Assembly (NCBI GenBank): GCA_963808625.1
Contig: CAWEHK010000033.1
Coordinates: forward strand, 96,001-160,000
Source of the DNA: an uncultured delta proteobacterium
Lineage (GTDB): Bacteria; Desulfobacterota; Syntrophobacteria; Syntrophobacterales; Syntrophobacteraceae
Direction of reading: 5' to 3'
DNA: 64,000 nucleotides
The notes beneath the pieces are model-generated. The model was not told where the DNA came from and did not search any database. It saw nothing but the letters and a program-made list of their open reading frames with translations. Below, piece after piece: positions 8,601 to 64,000 of this stretch. The translations under genes and the position numbers were made by a program. The stretch's first letter is position 1; every line of letters starts with the position of its first letter.

Positions 8601-9395
8601 AAATGAATCTCGCGCAGCTCGAAACCAACCTGGCCCGAAGCATTCGCGTGATTGATGGGGAGAGCAAGGGAGAAGTCATTGAAGTCCGGAAAGAAGCACC
8701 GGGTCAAGGTAACTTTTTCAGCAAGCTGGAAATGGACCTCACCATTCATCTCCCTCCGTCCGGGACCTGGGTGCGCGGAATGGGACTGGATGCCGAAATA
8801 ACGGGCTCCCTCAAAATTGAAAAGCGACCATTCGCAGAAGTGAAGCTGCGCGGAGGATTCCAAACGCTTGCGAGGCGAATATCGGTTCCAGGACTATAAA
8901 CTCAAAATCGTCAGCGGTGAAGTGGTCTTCCCCGAGTCTCCGCAGCCTGACCCCCAGCTAAAAATCATTTGTCAAAAGGATGTGAAGGATGCCATCATAC
9001 AGGTACAGGTTACGGGACCGCTGAAGCAACCGAAGCTGGTCATGAGCAGTATGCCCTCGATGAACCAGGTGGATATCCTCTCTTATCTGCTTTTTGATCG
9101 GGCCGCAGGGGATTTGAGCTCCAAAGAGAGCTTTCAGCTCCAGGATAAGGCGGCTCATGGCTTGGGTCACAAACCTCGCAACTGCTCAAAAGGGTCCTCG
9201 GAGACACCCCGTTTACTCCGGATACCATCGAATATCGGAAAGGCCAGCTCAAGCCGACGGGCACTTCGGGGAGTGAAAACAGAAGGTGGGTGTTGTGGCG
9301 ATTGGAAAGTACCTCACTCCGGACTTGTATGTGAACTTCGAAAAGAGCGTTACCGGGGAAGAAGGGAACCAGGTCGAATGTTGAATACAGGTTGA
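5663..9395 (+). CDS. tamB: TamB/AsmA-like translocation-assembly protein (several frameshifts)
   Basis: N-terminal TM anchor, long beta-rich body over successive ORFs, C-terminal TamB-like GMGLDAEITGSL..VTGPLKQPKLVMSSMPSMNQVDILSYLLF..GKYLTPDLYV. Confidence 0.75.
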
Positions 9396-10029: not shown

Positions 10030-10377
10030 ATGAAGGACCCTGTTGTGCTGCAAGATCAAGACGTTCTGCTCAGGATTCAAAACAACAAGAATCCCGACCA
10101 GGGGATCTTTCTGGTCATCGATGCATCCCGTGAACACCTCCAGACCCAGGGCCTGCAGGCGCTTTTTGGCTTGAAGGAAATCCGCATGGCGACGCAAGAT
10201 GTGGTGCAATCTCTTCATGAATACGCGCAAGTGCTCTCCTTCATTCTCGAAACCATCTCGACCGCTGAAGAGCTGGGATTGCCGTACCGCTACCAGAATG
10301 AATTTCAATTCGGCGACGCCAACTATACTCTCTATGAGGAAGGGGAGCACCGGATGCTGAGAAAGGTGGAAGCATAG
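10030..10377 (+). CDS. Hypothetical protein
   Basis: 115-aa ORF with SD, co-oriented with the upstream gene. Confidence 0.6.
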   Translation: MKDPVVLQDQDVLLRIQNNKNPDQGIFLVIDASREHLQTQGLQALFGLKEIRMATQDVVQSLHEYAQVLSFILETISTAEELGLPYRYQNEFQFGDANYTLYEEGEHRMLRKVEA

Positions 10378-11355: not shown

Positions 11356-14300
11356 TTAATCATCTGACGGTGCAAATCCCCTGCGCAGGGTGTTCTCCAC
11401 GATGTTGCGGGGCACCATGAATTGCAGCAGATAGTCAGGGCCGCCGGCCTTGGAACCGATCCCGGACATCTTGAAACCGCCGAACGGATGGCGCTGCACC
11501 AGCGCCCCGGTGCAGCCTCGATTGAGATAGAGGTTGCCGACGCGAAATTCCCTTCGCGCCCTGGCGATATTTTCAGGACTTCGCGAAAACACCGCTCCCG
11601 TCAGGGCATATTGTGTGCTGTTTGCCACCTGCAGAGCTTCCTCAAAGTCCTTCACCTTCATAATGGCGAGAACCGGTCCGAAGATCTCCTCTTGCGCCAG
11701 GCGATGTTCCGGGCGGATATCGGTAAAGATGGTGAGGGGAACGAAGAGGGAGTGATGAGTGATGAGTGATGAGTGATGAGTGGCGGTTGCGGGGTGCTGA
11801 TTCTTGAGTGTTGAGTGCTGGGTGCTGAGTGCTGGGTGCTGGGTGTCAGGAAGGTAGTCGCGCTGGAGGAGGAGGGTGCCTTCCTCTTTGCCGATGGCGA
11901 TGTAATCGAGGATTTTTTGTCTGGCAGCGGGTTCGATCACCGCTCCGATGATGTTTTTAGGATCTTCGACCGGTCCGAGAGGGATGCTTTCCGCCGCAGA
12001 TACTAAACGTTCCACCAGGCGGTCGTAATTTTCTTCGAGGACGATCAAACGGGAGCAGGCGGAGCATTTCTGACCCTGGTAGCCAAACGCTGAGTGCAAA
12101 ATGTGCAGAACCGCCTCATCGAGGTCCGCGTCGGCATCCACAATGATGGCGTTCTTGCCCCCCATTTCCGCGATCACGTGTTTGACCCCTCGTGCGCTCC
12201 GGCCGGTTTTGGCTGCCAGCTCAACGATGTGGAGGCCGGTTTCTTTGCTTCCGGTGAAGGCAATGAGAGCCACCTCGGGATGGCTCACCAGGTAATCGCC
12301 AATTTCACTGCCGGGCCCGGGCAGGAAATTCAAGACGCCGGGCGGCAGCTTCGCCTCCCGGAACAACTCGGAAACCATGGAACCGATCACGGGAGACTGG
12401 GAGGCGGGTTTGTAGACGACCGTGTTGCCGGTAACGATGGCGGCGGAAGTCATTCCCATCGAGATCGCGAGAGGAAAATTCCAGGGAGCGATGACCACGC
12501 AGACGCCTCTTGGTTCGTAGATGAGATGGCTCAGTTCACCCGGAGCGTGCCCCATGCGCCGCGGCGGCCCGAGCCGCAGCATCTCGCGGCCGTAGTATTC
12601 GAGAAAATCAATCGCTTCACAGACATCGGCATCCGCTTCGCCCCAGGCCTTTCCTACTTCAAAAACCTGCAGCGCCGCAAGATCGTAGCGCATCTTGCGC
12701 GCTCGCCATGCGGCCTGAAAAAGAAACTCGGCACGCTCCCGGTAGGGGGTGTCCCGCCACCCTGGAAAAGCCTCGCTTGCGGCCCGAACCGCCGCTTCCG
12801 CCTCCGCTCTGCCCGCCGCCGCCACGACTCCCACCACTTCATCCGGCGCGTTCGGGTTTACCGAGGAGATGGACCTGCCGGTTTCAAGCGTCTTGCCGCC
12901 AATGACCAGAGGGACCTTTCGCGGAAAGGTCTTGCGCAGGCGCTTCAGGGTCTCGCCGAAGCGCTCACGGGGTCCCCCAAGCGTCCAATCCCACAGGGGC
13001 TCGTTTTGGAAAGGGCCCTTGTCTTCGTATTCGGGCGCCTCCTGCCGGGGTCCCTGGGGCGGGGGTTGCTCCTGCAGCATTTCTTTTGGATTGCGGAGCA
13101 ACGCTTCGACCGGGATGCCTTGGACAAAGCTCTGGCGGAGAAAGGACTCGTTGGAGGTATTTTCAAGCAGGCGGCGAACGAGATAAGCCATACCCTGGAG
13201 CATCTCGCCAATGGGCGCATAGACGCGCAGCGGCAGGCCCGCTTTCCGCAGGGCGTTCCTTATGGGCTCCCCCATGCCGTAGATGACCTGATATTCGACC
13301 TGCTCGGCGGGGACACGCAGTTCTTTCGCGGCTTCGATCACGAAGGCGAGCGACCGCAGGTTATGCGAGGCGCATGCCAGTCGGACGCGTTCATGGTGCT
13401 GCAGAATAATGCGGGCCAGTCTTTCAAAATGGGCATCGGTTTCAGGCTTACTGGTAAAGACCGGGATCGGCCAATTGTTCTGACGCGCCCAGATGACCTC
13501 CGAATCCCAGTAGGCCCCTTTCACGAGGCGGATGGTAAAGGGGATTTTGCGGGTTCGCGCCCACTGGAGCAGGTCCTCGAGGTCCGCTTCACTATCCTGA
13601 CGATAGCACTGAAGAGCAATGCCGGTGTGGGGGTAATCGTGGAACTCGGGTTCATCCATAAGGCTGCGGTAGAGCGCCAGGGTGAGGTTTTTGAGCCCAT
13701 GGTGTTCCATGTCCAGATTAACAAAGGCCCCCATCGCGACCGCCTTCCTGAAGAGAGGACGCAGCCGTTCTTTCGCCATCGCTACGGAATGTTCGAAGGC
13801 GGTTGCCCGCAACTGGGAATACATGGCGGAAGCCTTGATGGAAACGTTGACCTTGGGCGAATGTCCCCAGTCCAGGTCGGTAGAGCCTTCACCAAGGGCG
13901 GGCCAGCCATGCTGGACCCCGTCCAGCACGTCGAAGAGTTCGAGATAGCGGTCATAATAGTCGTTGGCTTCATTCTCCGAAACCACCGCTTCGCCGAGCA
14001 AATCGGCGGTAAATCCGACACCCAGCGAACGCAGACGCTCCAGGGCGGGAAGGGCTTGCTCCGGAGTGCTTCCCAGGACGAATTGCCGGGCCATGCTGGT
14101 GATGTTATCGGTGAAGCTTTTCGCCACCATCTTTGCCGTGAACGAGGTCGACGAGCCCAATTTGATTCCCCACTGCAATGCCGAAGGGAGTTTCAATTCC
14201 GGCCGCCCGAAGTATTCCTGAAGGTGTCTGGCGATGGACTCAGGCTGGGTGAGGTAGGGAAAGACATCGATGAAGCGAAACATTTGCACCCGAAACGCAT

Positions 14301-20373: not shown

Positions 20374-20401
20374 AGTTTACATAATATATATTATCAGACG
20401 T
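20374..20401 (-). other. dif-like chromosome dimer resolution site
   Basis: Minus strand ACGTCTGATAA-TATATA-TTATGTAAACT: 11-6-11 layout with a XerD-type arm; intergenic. Confidence 0.8.
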
Positions 20402-56421: not shown

Positions 56422-56449
56422 GTTTGACATAAAATGCATTATGTAAATA
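56422..56449. promoter_or_regulatory. Symmetric 11-6-11 Xer-type recombination site overlapping a sigma-70-like promoter
   Basis: GTTTGACATAA-AATGCA-TTATGTAAATA; both arms read TTATGT(C/A)AA; TTGACA lies within the left arm; 70 bp upstream of the recombinase ATG. Confidence 0.6.
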
Positions 56450-56519: not shown

Positions 56520-57465
56520 ATGAAAACCAAAAAACAACTGCTGGTGCCGACAGCAGCACCCGGGACGGCGGCGCCGATCCCCGAAGAGTCCGTGTGGCTG
56601 AAAAATTTTGTGTCGCCACGGACCCGGCAAACCTATCTCAATGCGGTGCGCGAGTTCATCGGCTTTCATCAAATCACTGATCCCGCGGAGTTGCGGACAA
56701 TCAACCAGGCGCATGTTATCAGCTGGCGGGATTTTTTGATCGAATCCGGTGCCACCCCCAAAACTATTCACAACCGCATCTCGGCCGTGTCATCGCTCTT
56801 CAAACATTTGTGCGAGCGCCAGGTGGCGAAAAGAAACCCGACCGTGGGAGTCAAGCGCCCGCATGTCGACAGCAGCCAGGTCAAAACTCCGGTCATCACT
56901 CCCGAGCAGGTAAGAAAAATGCTCGACGTCCCTGCTCCGAAAAAACTTCAAGGGCTGCGCGACCAGGCGGTCCTCCACATTCTTTTTTACACGGGATGTC
57001 GGATCAGCGAAGTGTGTTCGCTCAAGGTCAAAGATTTCTACGAAGATGGCGGCTACTTTGTTTTGGATTTTCTGGTGAAGGGTGGAAAAAGAAATCGCCT
57101 GGCCATTCATCCAGGAGCTGCAGCTGGTTCTCAAAAACTATCTGGAGGCCTCCGGGCACCAACACAAACCGGAGGCACCTTTAATTCTCGCGGCCAAGAA
57201 GAAAACCGGCCGCAAGGAGCTCGCTCCCCTCTCCCGCCAGCAGATGCACAACCTCTTTATGCGCTATGCCCAAAAAGCCGGATTGCCCCAGGGCGTCCGG
57301 CCGCACACGGCCCGGGCAACTTTCATCACCCAAGCGCTGGAAAAGAAGTGTCCCATCGAGGCCGTCCAAAGAAGCGTCGGCCACAGCCGGATCTCCACTA
57401 CCCAGATGTATGACAAGCGGATTCTCAAACACCGGGAGAGCGCCAGCTTTGCGGTAGTTTACTAA
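56520..57465 (+). CDS. Tyrosine recombinase, full length (one extra G near 57115 relative to copy 3)
   Basis: N-terminal binding domain plus catalytic R (TGCRISE), K (VKGGK), HxxR (HTAR), H (VGHS) and Y (TQMYD). Confidence 0.92.
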
Positions 57466-57512
57466 CCGGTTTAAAGATTGGGAGAAGATACTGGTAGGTG
57501 GATTCATTTTTT

Positions 57513-57743
57513 TCAGTTGAGAATCGCAAAGAGCTGGTTTCCTCGTCTGGCCAGTCCGCAACTTTCGCCGAAGAGCGCGTAGTCCTTGAGCACGTCGCCG
57601 GCTACGGTATGGATGAGCTCGGCCAGGTGAAAGTGAGAAACAGGGGTGTAACTGTCAGTCGCCTCGGGAATCTTGATTAGGTCAAGTTCCTGCCGAGATA
57701 CTAACTTGCTGCCGTTCTTCTCGTCGATTGATAGTCCTTGCAT
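57513..57743 (-). pseudogene. Truncated DUF932-like mobile-element protein
   Basis: LVSRQELDLIKIPEATDSYTPVSH..LARRGNQLF; strong SD GGAGG; stops after 76 aa; family assigned from memory. Confidence 0.5.
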
Positions 57744-58090
57744 GGTTTACCTCCTAGATTGAGATATGCTGTTCCTTTTGGGAAAACGTGAACTTTTTCA
57801 ATCGTTCCCCCCACGGAAACAGGAATGGAGGTAACCGTGTTTGTTAAATTCTTCACTTGCTACTGTAAATTAATTCGTTCCGCTAGATACGAATATCGTT
57901 TTACGTCACTAGAAGTAATTTATTAACGACTTGATAAGTGGTTGTTGATTGATAATTGTGCCAAACATCACAAGCTATATGAAACTACAACTGCTACTGG
58001 AATGATTTTTTTGATTGAATATCGAAACTGATTCTGCTACTATGGTCCGAAATGATGAAGGTTATTATTGACGATGGAGAGGAGATGGCC

Positions 58091-58444
58091 ATGGCTTTCA
58101 AGAAATTCACTCAGGTGGGCGCGCGGTCCTTCACGCCCAAGGTGGGAATCTGGGCGAAGGGCCAGGTGGGATTCAACAAGGGAGCGGTCGAAAAATGGAA
58201 ACTCGGCCAGTACAGCTATGTGGTCCTGTACTATGACGACGACGCCAAGCAGATCGGAGTGCAGTTCACTAACGACGAAAATGCGGAAGGAGTAATTAAG
58301 ATTATCAAACGGGCAACTGGAATATCGTTCTCAGCCAACTCATTCCTGAAGCATTTCGAAATTGTCATTCCACAGGATAAGCAACAGTACGATGTGAAGT
58401 TTGACAACGAGGAGAAAATGTGTATAATCGATCTTCCAAAATAG
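58091..58444 (+). CDS. Hypothetical protein (cargo 1)
   Basis: SD GGAG; 117-aa ORF MAFKKFTQVG..VVLYYDDDAKQIGVQF. Confidence 0.75.
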   Translation: MAFKKFTQVGARSFTPKVGIWAKGQVGFNKGAVEKWKLGQYSYVVLYYDDDAKQIGVQFTNDENAEGVIKIIKRATGISFSANSFLKHFEIVIPQDKQQYDVKFDNEEKMCIIDLPK

Positions 58445-58617
58445 GAACGGCCGGGTTGACTGGCGGGTCAACTCAGCCGCTTAACGCCGTGGCGACTCTA
58501 ATTTGCCAGAGTCTCCACCGAAGCCACCCCGGTGAAGGGGTCCTATCGTATGCAAGCAGTAAGATTATAGGCACCGGGTGGGTTCGTCAAGGCCAAAATT
58601 TGGCAGATAGGAAGGAG

Positions 58618-58743
58618 GTGGCCCACCTGGCTGATAACAAGGAAAAGGACGTGATCTTCGTCCGCTACTTCCGACACTACCGAACGGGTAAGATTGTTTA
58701 CCCGAAGAAAGGTGAGTTCATTAAGATCGTAATTAAGAAATAA
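58618..58743 (+). CDS. Small basic peptide (cargo 1)
   Basis: Strong SD AGGAGGT; VIFVRYFRHYRTGKIVYPKKGEFIKIVIKK; followed by a terminator; start codon (GTG or CTG) uncertain. Confidence 0.5.
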   Translation: MAHLADNKEKDVIFVRYFRHYRTGKIVYPKKGEFIKIVIKK

Positions 58744-58792
58744 TCCTCGGCGCAATGGTCCGGACAGCCCCTTCCGGATCGCGCCTCATACT

Positions 58793-58824
58793 CCGCCCAG
58801 GTCCGCCTGGGCGGTTTCATTTTG
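58793..58824 (+). terminator. Intrinsic terminator ending cargo 1
   Basis: CCGCCCAGG-tccg-CCTGGGCGG-TTTCATTTT. Confidence 0.7.
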
Positions 58825-58870
58825 TTACTAATTTCAAAGAACTTATACTTTCCGCGCAATCTCGGGTCAG

Positions 58871-59114
58871 GCTCGCTCCCCTCTCCCGCCAGCAGATGCA
58901 CAACCTCTTTATGCGCTATGCCAAAAAAGCCGGATTGCCCCAGGGCGTCCGGCCGCACACGGCCCGGCAACTTTCATCACCCAAGCGCTGGAAAAGAAGT
59001 GTCCCATCGAGGCCGTGCAGGGAGCTCCGCCATAGCCGGATCTCCACAACACAGATGTATGATAAGCGAACTTTGAAGCACCGAGAGAGCGCCAGCTTTG
59101 CGGTGGTGTACTGA
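58871..59114 (+). pseudogene. Recombinase 3'-end copy 2 (244 bp)
   Basis: Aligns to 57219-57465 of the head recombinase and ends at the same stop position. Confidence 0.92.
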
Positions 59115-59259
59115 ACAGCTCATCAGGATGATTTGTGGCTGGTTGCAGAAATCTTAGGGGTTTGGTTTACTTGTCTGGAACAGCATTGCCCCCCCATGAA
59201 TAATCTGCTCGAAATCCTTGAAGGCCATCCGAACTCTGTCCACTCTGGAAGGAGGCTAA

Positions 59260-59469
59260 ATGTCACAAGCAAACATCAGAGAAGCACACCGGTGCGCGGT
59301 GCAATTGGACAGCCTTGGTGCGGAGTATTCAGACCGCGAAGTGATGAGGCGCTGTCTTGGCAAGTGGCGGTTTGGCATCAAATTTTGCGCTATCAATTTG
59401 GTGCGCCACATCGAAATCGCGTGGATACAAATGTTATCCATCCTTAGAGGACATATATCATCAGAATAG
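59260..59469 (+). CDS. Small hypothetical protein
   Basis: SD GGAGG; 69-aa ORF; no recognisable domain. Confidence 0.35.
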   Translation: MSQANIREAHRCAVQLDSLGAEYSDREVMRRCLGKWRFGIKFCAINLVRHIEIAWIQMLSILRGHISSE

Positions 59470-59478
59470 GAGCATGTT

Positions 59479-59770
59479 ATGCGCAAAGTCTTAGTGATCG
59501 TTTCTGTCATAGTCGCATGTTGCTGGGGCGTAGCCGAGGGTCAACTCTTGAGCAATGGCTGGGTGGTTGATGTGTCGGAGAAATATCTGACGCTAAACTC
59601 TGGCGGCGAAACCGAGAAGAAGTTCACGATCGACAGAGTTCTTACAGTCGTCCTCAATGCGAGTTGCAAAAAAACGACCTGAAAGACTATCGAGGTTGGA
59701 GGGCTTTACACTGTTCACTCGGTCGGCGGTAACGTCGCGAAAGAAATATGGCCAGGCCCCATAAGATGAT
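59479..59770 (+). CDS. Small secreted hypothetical protein (probably frameshifted)
   Basis: SD AGGAG; signal peptide MRKVLVIVSVIVACCWGVAEG; 3' end inferred. Confidence 0.45.
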
Positions 59771-59959
59771 TAAAGATTTTAATGCCTGCCCGTGCGGGGG
59801 ATGTCGGTAACGATTTATTGTAACGCGCAGGTGTTACTCGATAAAGGGGCCGATGTCGATGTTCGGGAAAAGGACGGCAATACTGCGCTGAGAGTTGCAA
59901 CCACTAAAAGAGAAACATATCAATAAATATGGTCCGTTAGGCAGAAATGGGGAAACAGG

Positions 59960-60833
59960 ATGATTAGCAAAATACGTTGGCAGCGTAGCTGTAAAGCGAG
60001 ACTGATAGCGTTGTTGGTGGCTGGCATAGCGCTGTGGACGCCCATTGCTATCGCTGGAGTGAATGAGGATTTGTTCGAAGCATCAAAGCGAGGCGATCTG
60101 CCTGAGGTCAAACGACTCATCAATAAGGGGGCCGACGTAAATGCCAAAAACAATCAAGGCTGGACCGCGTTGATGTTGGCTTCCCATAATGGCCACTTTG
60201 AAGTCGTGCAGGTGTTGCTCGATAAAGGGGCCGATGCCAATGCTAGGGAGAATAAAGGCTTTACCATATTGATGGTTGCCTGCCAGAAAGGCCACCTTGA
60301 GGTCGTGCAGACCTTGCTGGCTAAGGGTGCAGAGGTTGATGCAGAGAATGATGTGGGCGGAACCGCGTTGATGGCTGCAGCCTTCGCTGGGCACCCGGAG
60401 GTCGTGCAGGCGTTGCTCGATAAAGGGGCCGATGTCGATGCCAAGAAAAAGGCGGCAATACCGCGTTGATGGCTGCGTCCGTGAATGGCCACTTTGAGGT
60501 CGTGCAGGCGCTGATTAATAAGGGGGCGAAGGTCTATGCTAAGGAGAACAAAGGCTTTACCGCGCTGATGATGGCCGCCCAAAATGGCCACCTTGAGGTC
60601 GTTCGGATTTTGCTCCTTAAAGGTGCCGATGTCAATGCCAAGAACAACAAAGCTACAACCGCGTTGATGTTGGCTTCCCAAAATGGCCACCTTGAGGTCG
60701 TGCAGGCGCTGATTAATAAGGGGGCGAAGGTCGTAATGCTAAAACGAATGACGGCTCAACCGCATTGACGGCTGCGTCCGTGAATGGCCACCCTGAGGTC
60801 GTAAAACTGCTTGTCAAGGCGGGAGCAAAATAG
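59960..60833 (+). CDS. Exported ankyrin-repeat protein (frameshifted)
   Basis: Signal-like N-terminus; repeated GxTALMxAxxNGHxEVVQxLLxKGADVNAK across three ORFs. Confidence 0.88.
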
Positions 60834-60900
60834 TCACCCACTAGACCGAAACATTTTAGACATTTTGTTTTGTTACTCACCGAACGAGAAAGGTTTAGCA

Positions 60901-61329
60901 ATGAAAAGAATTGTAACTGTCGGTTTGATCGTTTCTATTTTTTGTATAACCTTTTTGTTCTCCGCAGTAGTGGCAGCGGGCCCAAAAGAAAGTGCGAAAG
61001 GTCATGACACTTCGACACTGCCAAAAGCACTAATAGGCCATTGGGCACCAACATCCACCACAACTCATTATTATTTTGATTCGAAATCCTTAATCACGAT
61101 AACTGATGGCAAACGCACGGCCCTAAACTACACAGTCGTGCAATCGAACGAGGCTGAAAACTCGATACATATCCGTGTAAGAACGCAAGAGGATAAAGGT
61201 CATGATAAACAATTAATATTTTCTTCTGACCGTAACTCATTTGATGAGACTATTCGAATCAGGATGGGCGATAAGGTAATGTCGTTTACTTATCAATATA
61301 AATATGTTGATTCAAATACACGCCCATGA
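60901..61329 (+). CDS. Secreted hypothetical protein
   Basis: Signal peptide MKRIVTVGLIVSIFCITFLFSAVVAA; AT-rich. Confidence 0.7.
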   Translation: MKRIVTVGLIVSIFCITFLFSAVVAAGPKESAKGHDTSTLPKALIGHWAPTSTTTHYYFDSKSLITITDGKRTALNYTVVQSNEAENSIHIRVRTQEDKGHDKQLIFSSDRNSFDETIRIRMGDKVMSFTYQYKYVDSNTRP

Positions 61330-61944
61330 TTTCATCTAACCAATAAGAATAATACTGTCTTTGATATCAAGATAAGGTAAGGCACTATAGCCGTACAGAA
61401 CCTATAATGCTAGCGATCGCACGGCGGTTGAGAAGAACATAAGCCTTTATATTTTTCATGTTCTTTATCACAACGGTCAAAATACCAAAATATTATTATC
61501 CAAGCAATAGCACAGAACGGACCCAAGGCAAGAGTTAAACCCAAAAGCGCATAACACCACTTCGTTATAGTGTCCATTCTCTCATTTTCGTATTTACGGC
61601 ATTCTTCACGGCACAGTCGCAAGTGCTTGCCGCTCTCTCCTGTTTCGCATCCAACACTAACACTAGTAAGTGTGACTAAGCCAACGAAGGTCTTAATGAT
61701 GGTTACACATGCCTCCCGCCTAGATAGGATGATGAAGTCGGGTTTGGACAATGGACACTCCCTTTCCCTTCGCATCTGCGATCAATTCGGCCAGTGAAAT
61801 AACCCGCTGATCGAGGGCATGTGCCTTTGAGAACTATACTTATTCCAGTCCAGTTATTGGCTCAGCACTGTTCCAATAAGCAACATATTCCAGAAGGACC
61901 GCCTCGGTGACACGGCCAAGCTATGGAGTTCTCACAGAATCCAT

Positions 61945-62505
61945 TTATTCTTCATTGAAATAAGGGCAGAGTCTTCTCAATTTGTCATTAGTATATGTCG
62001 AACCAGGATATAATTCCATCCTACACGAGACTGTTTTTGTCTCTCCAACTACTTGTTGCCCACCAGTTACTTGTTTTCTATACTCTGATCCTCCTGCCTT
62101 CATGGTTATACGCGTTGTTTGGGGACTGTTCCATATTTGATAAATTACGTGATCTCTGTATATAATAGTATGCTTCCCTGGCGCTAAATAAATATCTTGA
62201 GTTTCATAATCCCACGATTGGTTTAGACGTGGAAAGAAACAATATGTTTTAGGGATGTCAAATGAATCGATTTTTTGGATAATAAAACCGTTAATGATAG
62301 GAATATGTTTAATCAGCACCATGTTACCTTTTGGAATTTCACTTACAGATGAAGGAAGGTAGATAGTCACAGGACCACAAGAAGAACATCCTATTGTAAT
62401 CGTGCACACCAGTACTAGGAGACAATAATGTAGCTTAATGATTAGTTGTATGATAATAATCGTTGTATTATTTCTATCTGATTTTCTCATTTTAGACCCT
62501 TCCAA
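61945..62505 (-). CDS. Putative lipoprotein (paralog of 63433..end)
   Basis: Hydrophobic leader + IGC; IYLPSS..PKGNMVL..DIYLAPGKHT. Confidence 0.7.
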   Translation of the reverse strand: MEGSKMRKSDRNNTTIIIIQLIIKLHYCLLVLVCTITIGCSSCGPVTIYLPSSVSEIPKGNMVLIKHIPIINGFIIQKIDSFDIPKTYCFFPRLNQSWDYETQDIYLAPGKHTIIYRDHVIYQIWNSPQTTRITMKAGGSEYRKQVTGGQQVVGETKTVSCRMELYPGSTYTNDKLRRLCPYFNEE

Positions 62506-62711
62506 AAAGTAGCACGACCAATATTCTTACAAAATTACAATCTTGATAAGTTATAAGATGATGTCTCATGGTTGCGAAACTTTGTCAAGCCCTAAAGTCA
62601 GCAACGGTCAAGCACGCTAACCGTCTTCATATAGTGAGAAGTTGAAAAATGAGTCAAGTTTATGGAAAAAGGACGAACCTAACCCTTGCCTCGCAAAGAA
62701 CCTTTTTGCAA

Positions 62712-63298
62712 AGGTCAAAACTCCGGTGATCACTCCCGAGCAGGTAAGAAAAATGCTCGACTCCCCTGCTCCGAAAAAACTTCAAGGGCTGCGCGACCAG
62801 GCGGTCCTCCACATTCTTTTTTACACGGGATGTAGGATCAGCGAAGTGTGTTCGCTCAAGGTCAAAGATTTCTACGAAGACGGCGGCTACTTTGTTTTGG
62901 ATTTTCTGGTGAAGGGTGGAAAAAGAAATTGCCTGGCCATTCATCCAGAGCTGCAGCTGGTTCTCAAAAACTATCTGGAGGCCTCCGGGCACCAACACAA
63001 ACCGGAGGCACCTTTAATTCTCGCGGCCAAGAAGAAAACCGGCAGGAAGGCCTTCGCTCCCCTATCGCGCCAGCAGATGCACAACCTCTTTATGCGCTAC
63101 GCCCAAAAAGCGGGACTGCCCCAAGGGGTCCGGCCGCATACCGCCCGGGCCACTTTCATTACCCAGGCCTTGGAAAAAAAGTGCCCCATCGAGGCGGTGC
63201 AAAGAAGCGTCGGCCATAGCCGGATCTCCACAACACAGATGTATGACAAGCGGACACTCAAACACCGCGAATCCGCCAGCTTTGCGGTAGTGTACTAA
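62712..63298 (+). pseudogene. Recombinase 3' copy 3 (587 bp; entire catalytic domain, open frame from 62642)
   Basis: Aligns to 56878-57465; all catalytic motifs intact; N-terminal binding domain absent. Confidence 0.92.
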
Positions 63299-63432: not shown

Positions 63433-64000
63433 ATGGCGATAGCAGGAATTAGTAATCGGAATGTCTTTGCGAAACATTTAACCATTGGCACAAAGTGCCT
63501 ACTAGTAGTTATATTCATGACTACGCTAGGATGTTCTTGTGGCCGTGGCACTCTTTACATTCCATCATCAATAAATACAATGCCTAAAAGCAATATGGTG
63601 CTGGTTGCCACCCAAGACAATTTATACTTGCCTACAATAGCTAGCGTTGATGGTGTTGATATGCGTGATAGACATTGCATTTTAAAAAATACAAAAGATT
63701 ACGACATTTATTTAATGCCAGGAGCACATACCTTTCAGATTCAAACTGCTCACTGGGAATATATAGGATCATCTAATACTGTACATATATATAAAGGTTT
63801 CATACATAGCCCAGGGGTAGGAGGAGGTCCAGATATTGTATACCCTGGAGGAGCCCATTTTAAGGCGACCGTAATCACAAAACCATGCACGTTGCAATTG
63901 GACCGTCCTGGTGGGAAATATACTCAATTGGAAGTGATGAAACTCTGCGGCCTGATTTGTACACAATATGACTGTTATCCTTACTATAATACTCCGTCAG
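63433..64000 (+). CDS. Putative lipoprotein, runs off the right edge (not in the ORF track)
   Basis: Manual translation MAIAGISNRN..LGCSCGRGTLYIPSSINTMPKSNMVL..DIYLMPGAHT.. stays open to the window end. Confidence 0.75.
   Translation, partial: MAIAGISNRNVFAKHLTIGTKCLLVVIFMTTLGCSCGRGTLYIPSSINTMPKSNMVLVATQDNLYLPTIASVDGVDMRDRHCILKNTKDYDIYLMPGAHTFQIQTAHWEYIGSSNTVHIYKGFIHSPGVGGGPDIVYPGGAHFKATVITKPCTLQLDRPGGKYTQLEVMKLCGLICTQYDCYPYYNTPS

Follow-up and report, generated by a model that had tools for sequence, protein, structure and literature searches.

A nested array of recombinase gene copies in a Syntrophobacteraceae island, and the putative site–recombinase module of its head

Nested copies of a recombinase gene

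We describe an array of one full-length and two partial copies of a predicted simple tyrosine recombinase gene, the only three copies in the 4.8-Mb host genome, found toward the end of a 64,000-nt window from an uncultured member of the Syntrophobacteraceae (contig CAWEHK010000033.1, positions 96,001–160,000, assembly GCA_963808625.1); positions below are those of this window unless a contig or locus is named. The array is a real and well-resolved recombination scar in a decaying island, with the layout N-A-B-D1-cargo1-B'-D2-cargo2-A'-C3-cargo3, in which the full-length gene is called the head. Its simplest history, and the one toward which we lean, is that single crossovers inside the gene placed the newest unit beside the head, as a by-product of recombination in that island with no programmed system behind it.

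The head (56520–57465, + strand) has 314 codons if an extra base at 57114 is read through. On the same strand, its segment A (56878–57210) matches the start of copy 3 at 98% identity, its segment B (57219–57365) has a near-identical counterpart in the start of copy 2, and its own 3' end, D1 (57366–57465), is unlike either downstream copy. Copy 2 (B'-D2; 58871–59114, +) is a 3' fragment running from codon 233/234 onward, with three one-base deletions relative to the head. Copy 3 (A'-C3; 62712–63298, +) starts at codon 120, without the N-terminal domain and the upstream site, and retains an open frame and the catalytic residues. The direct repeats B and B' enclose unit 1 (1652 bp), and A and A' enclose units 1 and 2 jointly (5834 bp). 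An earlier note, made by eye from this DNA, had every unit bracketed by near-identical repeats; that description holds for unit 1, but unit 2 alone has no such repeats, the identity of copies 2 and 3 being ∼85%. About 20 nt past the stop codon are common to copies 2 and 3, and the same lipoprotein-like family then follows both.

Pairwise alignment of head 56878–57465 with copy 3 62712–63298 gives 6 substitutions over 332 nt plus the extra G of the head (57114) up to position 57210, and past it 33 substitutions over 255 nt with the amino acid changes E233A, L234F, and I301T, exactly the counts that the note had reached by hand (6 plus one indel over ∼332, then ∼33 in 255, with 3 amino acid changes). 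A max-chi scan puts the breakpoint at 57211 (chi 28.8, reached by 0 of 2000 permutations; Fisher p=1e-7), so that the step proposed there is real and the divergence is not uniform. The proportion of synonymous sites that differ (pS) rises from 0.039 in A to 0.54 in B and 0.36 in D, while the nonsynonymous proportion (pN) stays between 0.01 and 0.03 (A 0.012, B 0.025, D 0.026); of the 6 sites at which A and A' differ, 3 are synonymous. Each of the 3' ends has thus diverged under purifying selection, which supports the note's proposal that they came from functional alleles. Over 57219–57365 (147 nt), copy 2 shows 1 substitution and 1 deletion relative to the head, as had been seen by eye, and then, up to the stop codon, 16 substitutions and 2 one-base deletions (Fisher p=7e-6 for the step, computed with a rounded 15/100). 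The two frameshifting deletions in D2 had escaped the note.

These deletions were set against the frameshift rate of the assembly, ∼0.25/kb in conserved genes (flags on 10 of 51, one of them a false overlap; near the window 7 of 24 gene entries are frameshifted, with one gene counted twice). By sequencing error alone, one frameshift in the head has a chance of 21%, whereas three in copy 2 give p=3e-5; therefore the head may be an intact gene and copy 2 has probably decayed. The three one-base deletions of copy 2 (58871–59114) add up to one codon and leave the fragment open throughout with ∼20 codons scrambled, probably by chance.

A single crossover with a homologous circle leaves a whole head carrying a new 3' end, with the old end behind a direct repeat, and nested direct repeats are expected from it. 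In the history that we favor, the head would be the recombinase of a mobile module consisting of a site and the recombinase gene, and related modules with other downstream cargo would have reached this lineage. Incoming DNA would have joined the resident gene by a single homology-dependent crossover, presumably mediated by RecA, either twice or once as a ready-made composite. At each crossover the complete head would gain a new 3' end and cargo while its old 3' end was shifted downstream behind a direct repeat, and the mosaic steps would be breakpoints of recombination between alleles; two successive crossovers would yield the full N-A-B-D1-cargo1-B'-D2-cargo2-A'-C3-cargo3 order. The displaced copies would have lost their site and 5' part at non-specific deletion or circle-closure junctions. 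The junctions, at codons 120 and 233, have no shared motif or hairpin, so we read them as scars of that kind and not as attachment (att) sites, and deletion is also suggested by an insertion sequence (IS)-like terminus that is truncated 50 nt short of the copy-3 junction.

The polarity of the array would follow from this history, and the map does fit crossovers in the gene with the newest unit beside the head, as the note had proposed. The order of insertion that it read from the map is not unique, however: divergence in A and B (6/332 versus 1/147, p=0.68) provides no clock and leaves the order unproven, and one composite insertion, or stacked modules trimmed by deletion, would give the identical map. 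G+C content at third codon positions is uninformative on which copy is the mosaic (A 64/109 versus 65/109; B 39/50 versus 38/50). Conversion of the head from copy 2 is disfavored by differences specific to the head that sit upstream of the copy 2 start.

The note also held that recombination between the repeats would excise cargo and restore an earlier C-terminus, a proposal that has weakened. A/A' excision would alter the protein by a few residues, and B/B' excision would join the head to a frameshifted end; entered in the frame of the head, D2 reaches a stop six codons on, ahead of the catalytic H288 and Y297. A C-terminal switching device is rejected, with C3 differing from the head by 3 residues and D2 frameshifted.

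A putative site–recombinase module

The 314-aa (amino acid) head protein has a SAM-like core-binding domain (Pfam SAM_4/SAM_1, residues 26–102) and a catalytic domain (Phage_integrase), lacks an arm-binding domain, and carries the catalytic R161, K187, H262, R265, H288, and Y297, which are invariant across 36 aligned sequences; by these features it classifies as a simple (Xer-like) tyrosine recombinase. Its profile scores lie below every curated cut-off (XerD 156 bits versus 330, XerC 133 versus 335, IntI TIGR02249 84 versus 265), and these scores, together with the lack of vertical presence (one 29% match, 80 genomes of the same bacterial family), rule out an identity as chromosomal XerC or XerD. 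At E≤0.001 there are 564 database relatives, the best among those listed being 52–88% identical, copy 3's own product excepted; relatives in viral contigs reach only 26–30% identity, and relatives on plasmids 36–40%, in varied settings. No member of the recombinase family was found in the 80 same-family genomes, and 1 of 400 genomes in a phylum sample was positive (G359, with 4 copies), so the distribution looks sporadic, multi-copy, and not vertical. One relative, P0112, is a 181-aa protein on a 30-kb contig, 88% identical and with the same start methionine as the copy 3 product; it may be another truncated copy.

Upstream of the head, at 56422–56449 (+), lies a dif-like palindrome of 28 bp (11-6-11, with an ATAA-N6-TTAT core) that occurs once in the genome and is probably the cognate recombination site of the head recombinase. 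Of 56 family loci, among them the window, 29 have such a site within 250 nt upstream (four with one core mismatch), compared to 53 of 1605 background windows, and so do 13 of 15 further genome loci. Site and gene form a module of ∼1.1 kb that occurs on plasmid-like and transposon DNA. DNA homology between family copies begins near the site and stops at or just past the stop codon (L153/L154/L156; L011/L012; L020/L024), and between L011 and L012 the cargo after the stop differs before 95% identity returns further downstream; across the family, the slot after the stop codon thus has the look of a cargo hot spot. Family neighbors are diverse, with Tn3 transposases at 3 of 50 loci (L032, L039, L088; 145 of 163 neighboring open reading frames [ORFs] scanned), toxin–antitoxin pairs (L038–L040), restriction genes, and transporters. 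No second 28-bp site that would close the island was found in the genome; for the G359 elements, a search allowing ≤1 mismatch gave two scattered matches and no closing site. The head probably serves as a resolvase at its own palindrome on plasmids, transposons, and islands.

Several observations on the sites and on family members are recorded here in their own right. A dif-like site at 20374–20401 (C33:116374) differs from the recombinase site, keeps 27 of its 28 positions in genome G022, and is probably the chromosomal dif; at L078 a near-identical site follows the family gene at a distance of 2.9 kb downstream. In G359, three of the four copies of a 41% relative (L122, L124, L125) stand directly behind CRISPR arrays, the 28-bp site separating the array from the gene and mobilization-like genes lying downstream (CRISPR and gene labels by eye); these elements may target or carry CRISPR leaders. 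At L156 a non-coding stretch after the family gene (8661–8908) has two further downstream repeats (10118–10367, 12385–12477) at 73–75% identity, which are possibly cassette-like.

Recurrence and alternative histories

No long partial copy was found at 83 family loci (40 with ≥3 kb downstream) or at 19 genome loci of 14–20 kb, a few loci being in both sets, and the array layout is not a family trait. Intact alleles show mosaic steps even where there is no array: of 48 non-independent pairs, 5 have one at p≤0.01, and no 5'–3' gradient holds throughout. An example is L088/L089, where divergence is 3.5% and then 15.6%. The more divergent side is 5' in many pairs, and a constraint gradient is therefore rejected as the explanation of the step.

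Several points weigh against the crossover history. Neither a donor allele nor an empty intermediate was found at the DNA level, and the closest relatives (88% aa identity) lack context. Copy 2 starts 8 nt from the A/C switch, a proximity that the note had pointed out and that the alignment bears out; it has a 3–7% probability by chance and is unexplained by the crossover model. Short downstream remnants of 54–112 nt are in excess (6 of 64 loci of ≥2.5 kb versus 2 of 193 control ORFs, p=0.004), which hints at something more regular than chance, though they come from only 3 lineages (L045/L046; L061; L063/L064/L082) and by lineage p=0.09. The assembly, finally, shows signs of chimeric contigs: C33 carries inverted core-gene blocks at 36–79 and 147–201 kb, two copies on one contig that are ∼75–80% identical. 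Duplicated blocks are also found inside contigs C37, C8, and C54, with an overall identity range of 70–92%, and these contigs are probably chimeras of two related organisms, which bears on every finding from the assembly.

Whole modules may instead have been stacked in tandem, by recombination at the 28-bp site or by transposition, with the downstream sites and 5' parts then deleted and A and B homogenized by conversion or crossover, in which case nesting would be uninformative on order. We consider this unlikely, though it draws on real features of the array: family modules start at the site, the island is rich in deletion debris (the cut IS-like end before copy 3 included), and the ∼20 nt past the stop codon and the lipoprotein-like family shared behind copies 2 and 3 are as would be found for sister modules. 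Yet the genome has a single site, tandem full modules occur at 0 of the 83 and 0 of the 19 loci, and both conversion tracts would have to begin exactly at the 5' junctions. Gene conversion is also inefficient between copies that are 13% divergent, and head-specific differences at 57211–57218 lie upstream of the copy 2 start.

Dedicated capture, in which the recombinase would use 100–300 bp of homology to insert circles carrying cargo and a 3' part of the gene into its own gene, regenerating the whole gene and building a polarized array, strikes us as improbable. The cargo hot spot behind the stop codon is family-wide, the short remnants of L045/L046, L061, and L063/L064/L082 could be read in its favor, and the cargo is cassette-like (small, secreted, and of low G+C content). 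Relaxed recombination by IntpTN3 between identical 104-bp segments provides a precedent (PMC8371274). Against this stand the junction codons, which all differ (120, 233, ∼290, ∼296, ∼215), the absence of long partial copies from the 83 loci (40 with ≥3 kb downstream) and the 19, and cargo without an attC-like site (strict consensus); moreover, the remnant of the L063 lineage is one inherited sequence, and breaks are present in copy 2 and in several cargo genes. The same doubt attaches to the bolder form of this proposal, a “reverse-suicidal” module that would use its own coding sequence as a landing pad, alone or with RecA take in circles carrying an allelic 3' end and cargo, stay intact, and so build a polarized, excisable array without att cassettes, with the cargo slot and the remnants of three lineages as its eroded record. 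If the recombinase did drive capture, this would be an att-free route of gene collection in bacteria.

We give very little credence to an assembly or polishing artefact, in which strain variants were joined in tandem or the consensus was homogenized over A and B: the ∼0.25 frameshifts/kb in conserved genes and the ∼75–80% identical inverted blocks of C33, with the like in other contigs, speak for it, but each junction is a unique join outside repeats and requires molecules that span it, repeats of 147–332 nt are short compared to long reads (a long-read origin being deduced from the kind of errors present), 6 differences, 3 of them synonymous, persist between A and A', and copies 13% apart do not cross-map.

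On the crossover history, the array would be a snapshot of cargo swapping by mobile modules, with an abundant conserved recombinase gene providing the anchor of homology. The family itself is the more durable result: a widespread module of ∼1.1 kb that unites a dif-like palindrome, a recombinase gene, and a cargo slot behind its stop codon, and that offers predictable recombinase–site pairs. No description of the module or the array was found in the literature searched, which lay mostly outside subscription journals.

Cargo and island

The array opens an island of ∼18 kb that has a thioesterase gene on one side and the next core gene on the other; in 5 congeneric genomes these two genes are adjacent and the island is absent. 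The island contains Tn3 and IS debris. Just beyond the window (L001:10490–14854; C33:160489–164853) lies a Tn3-type element bounded by 40-bp terminal repeats; it carries a serine resolvase-like gene and a broken transposase gene split over several frames. No convincing Tn3-type ends were found around the head. In most 400-nt bins the cargo has a G+C content of 36–49%, versus 50–61% in the flank.

Cargo 1 (57466–58870) holds a truncated reverse ORF (57513–57743), a gene for ∼120–130 aa (58052–58444), and a 41-aa ORF (58618–58743). Look-alikes of the 58052–58444 gene are phage-associated, its ESM Atlas matches are to unnamed clusters only, and its homologs occur in 3 of 350 genomes, with the family recombinase absent from the surrounding stretches examined.

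Cargo 2 (59115–62711) consists of low-G+C genes: a remnant related to the cargo-3 gene (59293–59354), a broken ankyrin gene (∼59960–60832), a gene for a probable secreted protein (60901–61329), and a lipoprotein-like gene (61945–62505, −). The ankyrin-repeat gene (59960–60832) has a signal-like N-terminus and is split over three frames, with a stray ankyrin repeat upstream at 59824–59898. The first gene of cargo 3 (63433–64000, +) runs 6 nt beyond the window and encodes a 190-aa lipoprotein-like protein that is 32% identical to the product of 61945–62505, “lipoprotein-like” being a reading of the N-terminus with no family match. This unnamed family thus occurs three times, as divergent paralogs on either side of copy 3 and as the remnant at 59293–59354 behind copy 2.

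The truncated IS-like terminus before the copy-3 junction is a 48-nt 3' end (62614–62661, −) of an unnamed family. It is a 90% match to the end of an IS-like ORF in genome G020, and two IS-like copies in G446 end sharply at the point that matches it. The element (L183:7551–7984; L190, L192) has a large ORF without Pfam, NCBIfam, or named Atlas family; neither end nor ORF has a match in viral contigs, and the end is not in plasmids.

No attC-like pair (RYYYAAC...GTTRRRY within 160 nt, both strands, between 57401 and the cargo-3 gene's end) was found with a strict consensus, Rfam gave no matches in 20 kb, and the sequence before the copy-2 junction had no match in the 80 genomes. Among relatives, nothing matched the cargo DNA except the ankyrin gene and the IS-like end.

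Relation to known systems

Shufflons, served by Rci, have inverted repeats, short specific sites, and alternative C-termini that differ in function. The array resembles them in its alternative 3' ends lined up behind a 5' part, whereas its repeats are direct, it has no short specific sites, and its alternative ends encode nearly the same protein. In the part of PMC8138268 that classifies recombinases and mentions the shufflon, the family of the head is not named.

In archaeal suicidal integrases (SSV1, pTN3, pT26-2), recombination takes place inside the integrase's own gene, and homologous recombination gives rise to chimeric genes (PMC8371274). Their gene is divided by a fixed att core into int(N) and int(C); the head, by contrast, is whole, its array has no fixed junctions, and its site lies outside the coding sequence. 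We reject a suicidal integrase, the junction codons 120 and 233 having no shared motif and the head being whole.

The layout of the module resembles that of two other groups. Among single-recombinase Xer systems, XerS acts at difSL, a 28-bp palindrome of 11-6-11 next to the recombinase (PMC2731167), and an 11-6-11, 28-bp palindrome adjoining the recombinase is a likeness that extends to XerH/difH and XerCD/dif. Unlike these, the head family is sporadic and multi-copy and scores under the Xer cut-offs, and the contig has its conserved chromosomal dif-like site at another place. In Tn3-family elements with TnpI and irs (Tn4430, Tn5401) or TnpS and rst, the core site is an inverted repeat that lies a short way upstream of the gene (PMC7157771). 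The TnpI type is alike in joining a simple tyrosine recombinase to an upstream core site, and Tn3 transposases and toxin–antitoxin pairs are among the family neighbors. It is unlike in that the Tn3 element nearby brings a resolvase of its own and leaves the head outside its 40-bp ends, and TnpA is near only 3 of 50 loci; as for TnpS/rst, no TnpT-like partner was seen beside the head.

An integron is rejected for the array, with an IntI score of 84 versus 265 and no attC pair (strict consensus), and no IS91-like rolling-circle transposase was present among the window ORFs scanned, island ORFs past the window having been read by eye only. The closest architecture is the partial 3'-conserved segment (3'-CS) duplication of ISCR1-linked integrons, for which a model has circles returning through homologous recombination within the anchor. 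The conserved anchor that is partly repeated after each cargo block of these class 1 integrons, through 3'-CS duplications (PMC3575428), differs from the one in the window, where, with no integron present, the anchor is the recombinase gene itself.

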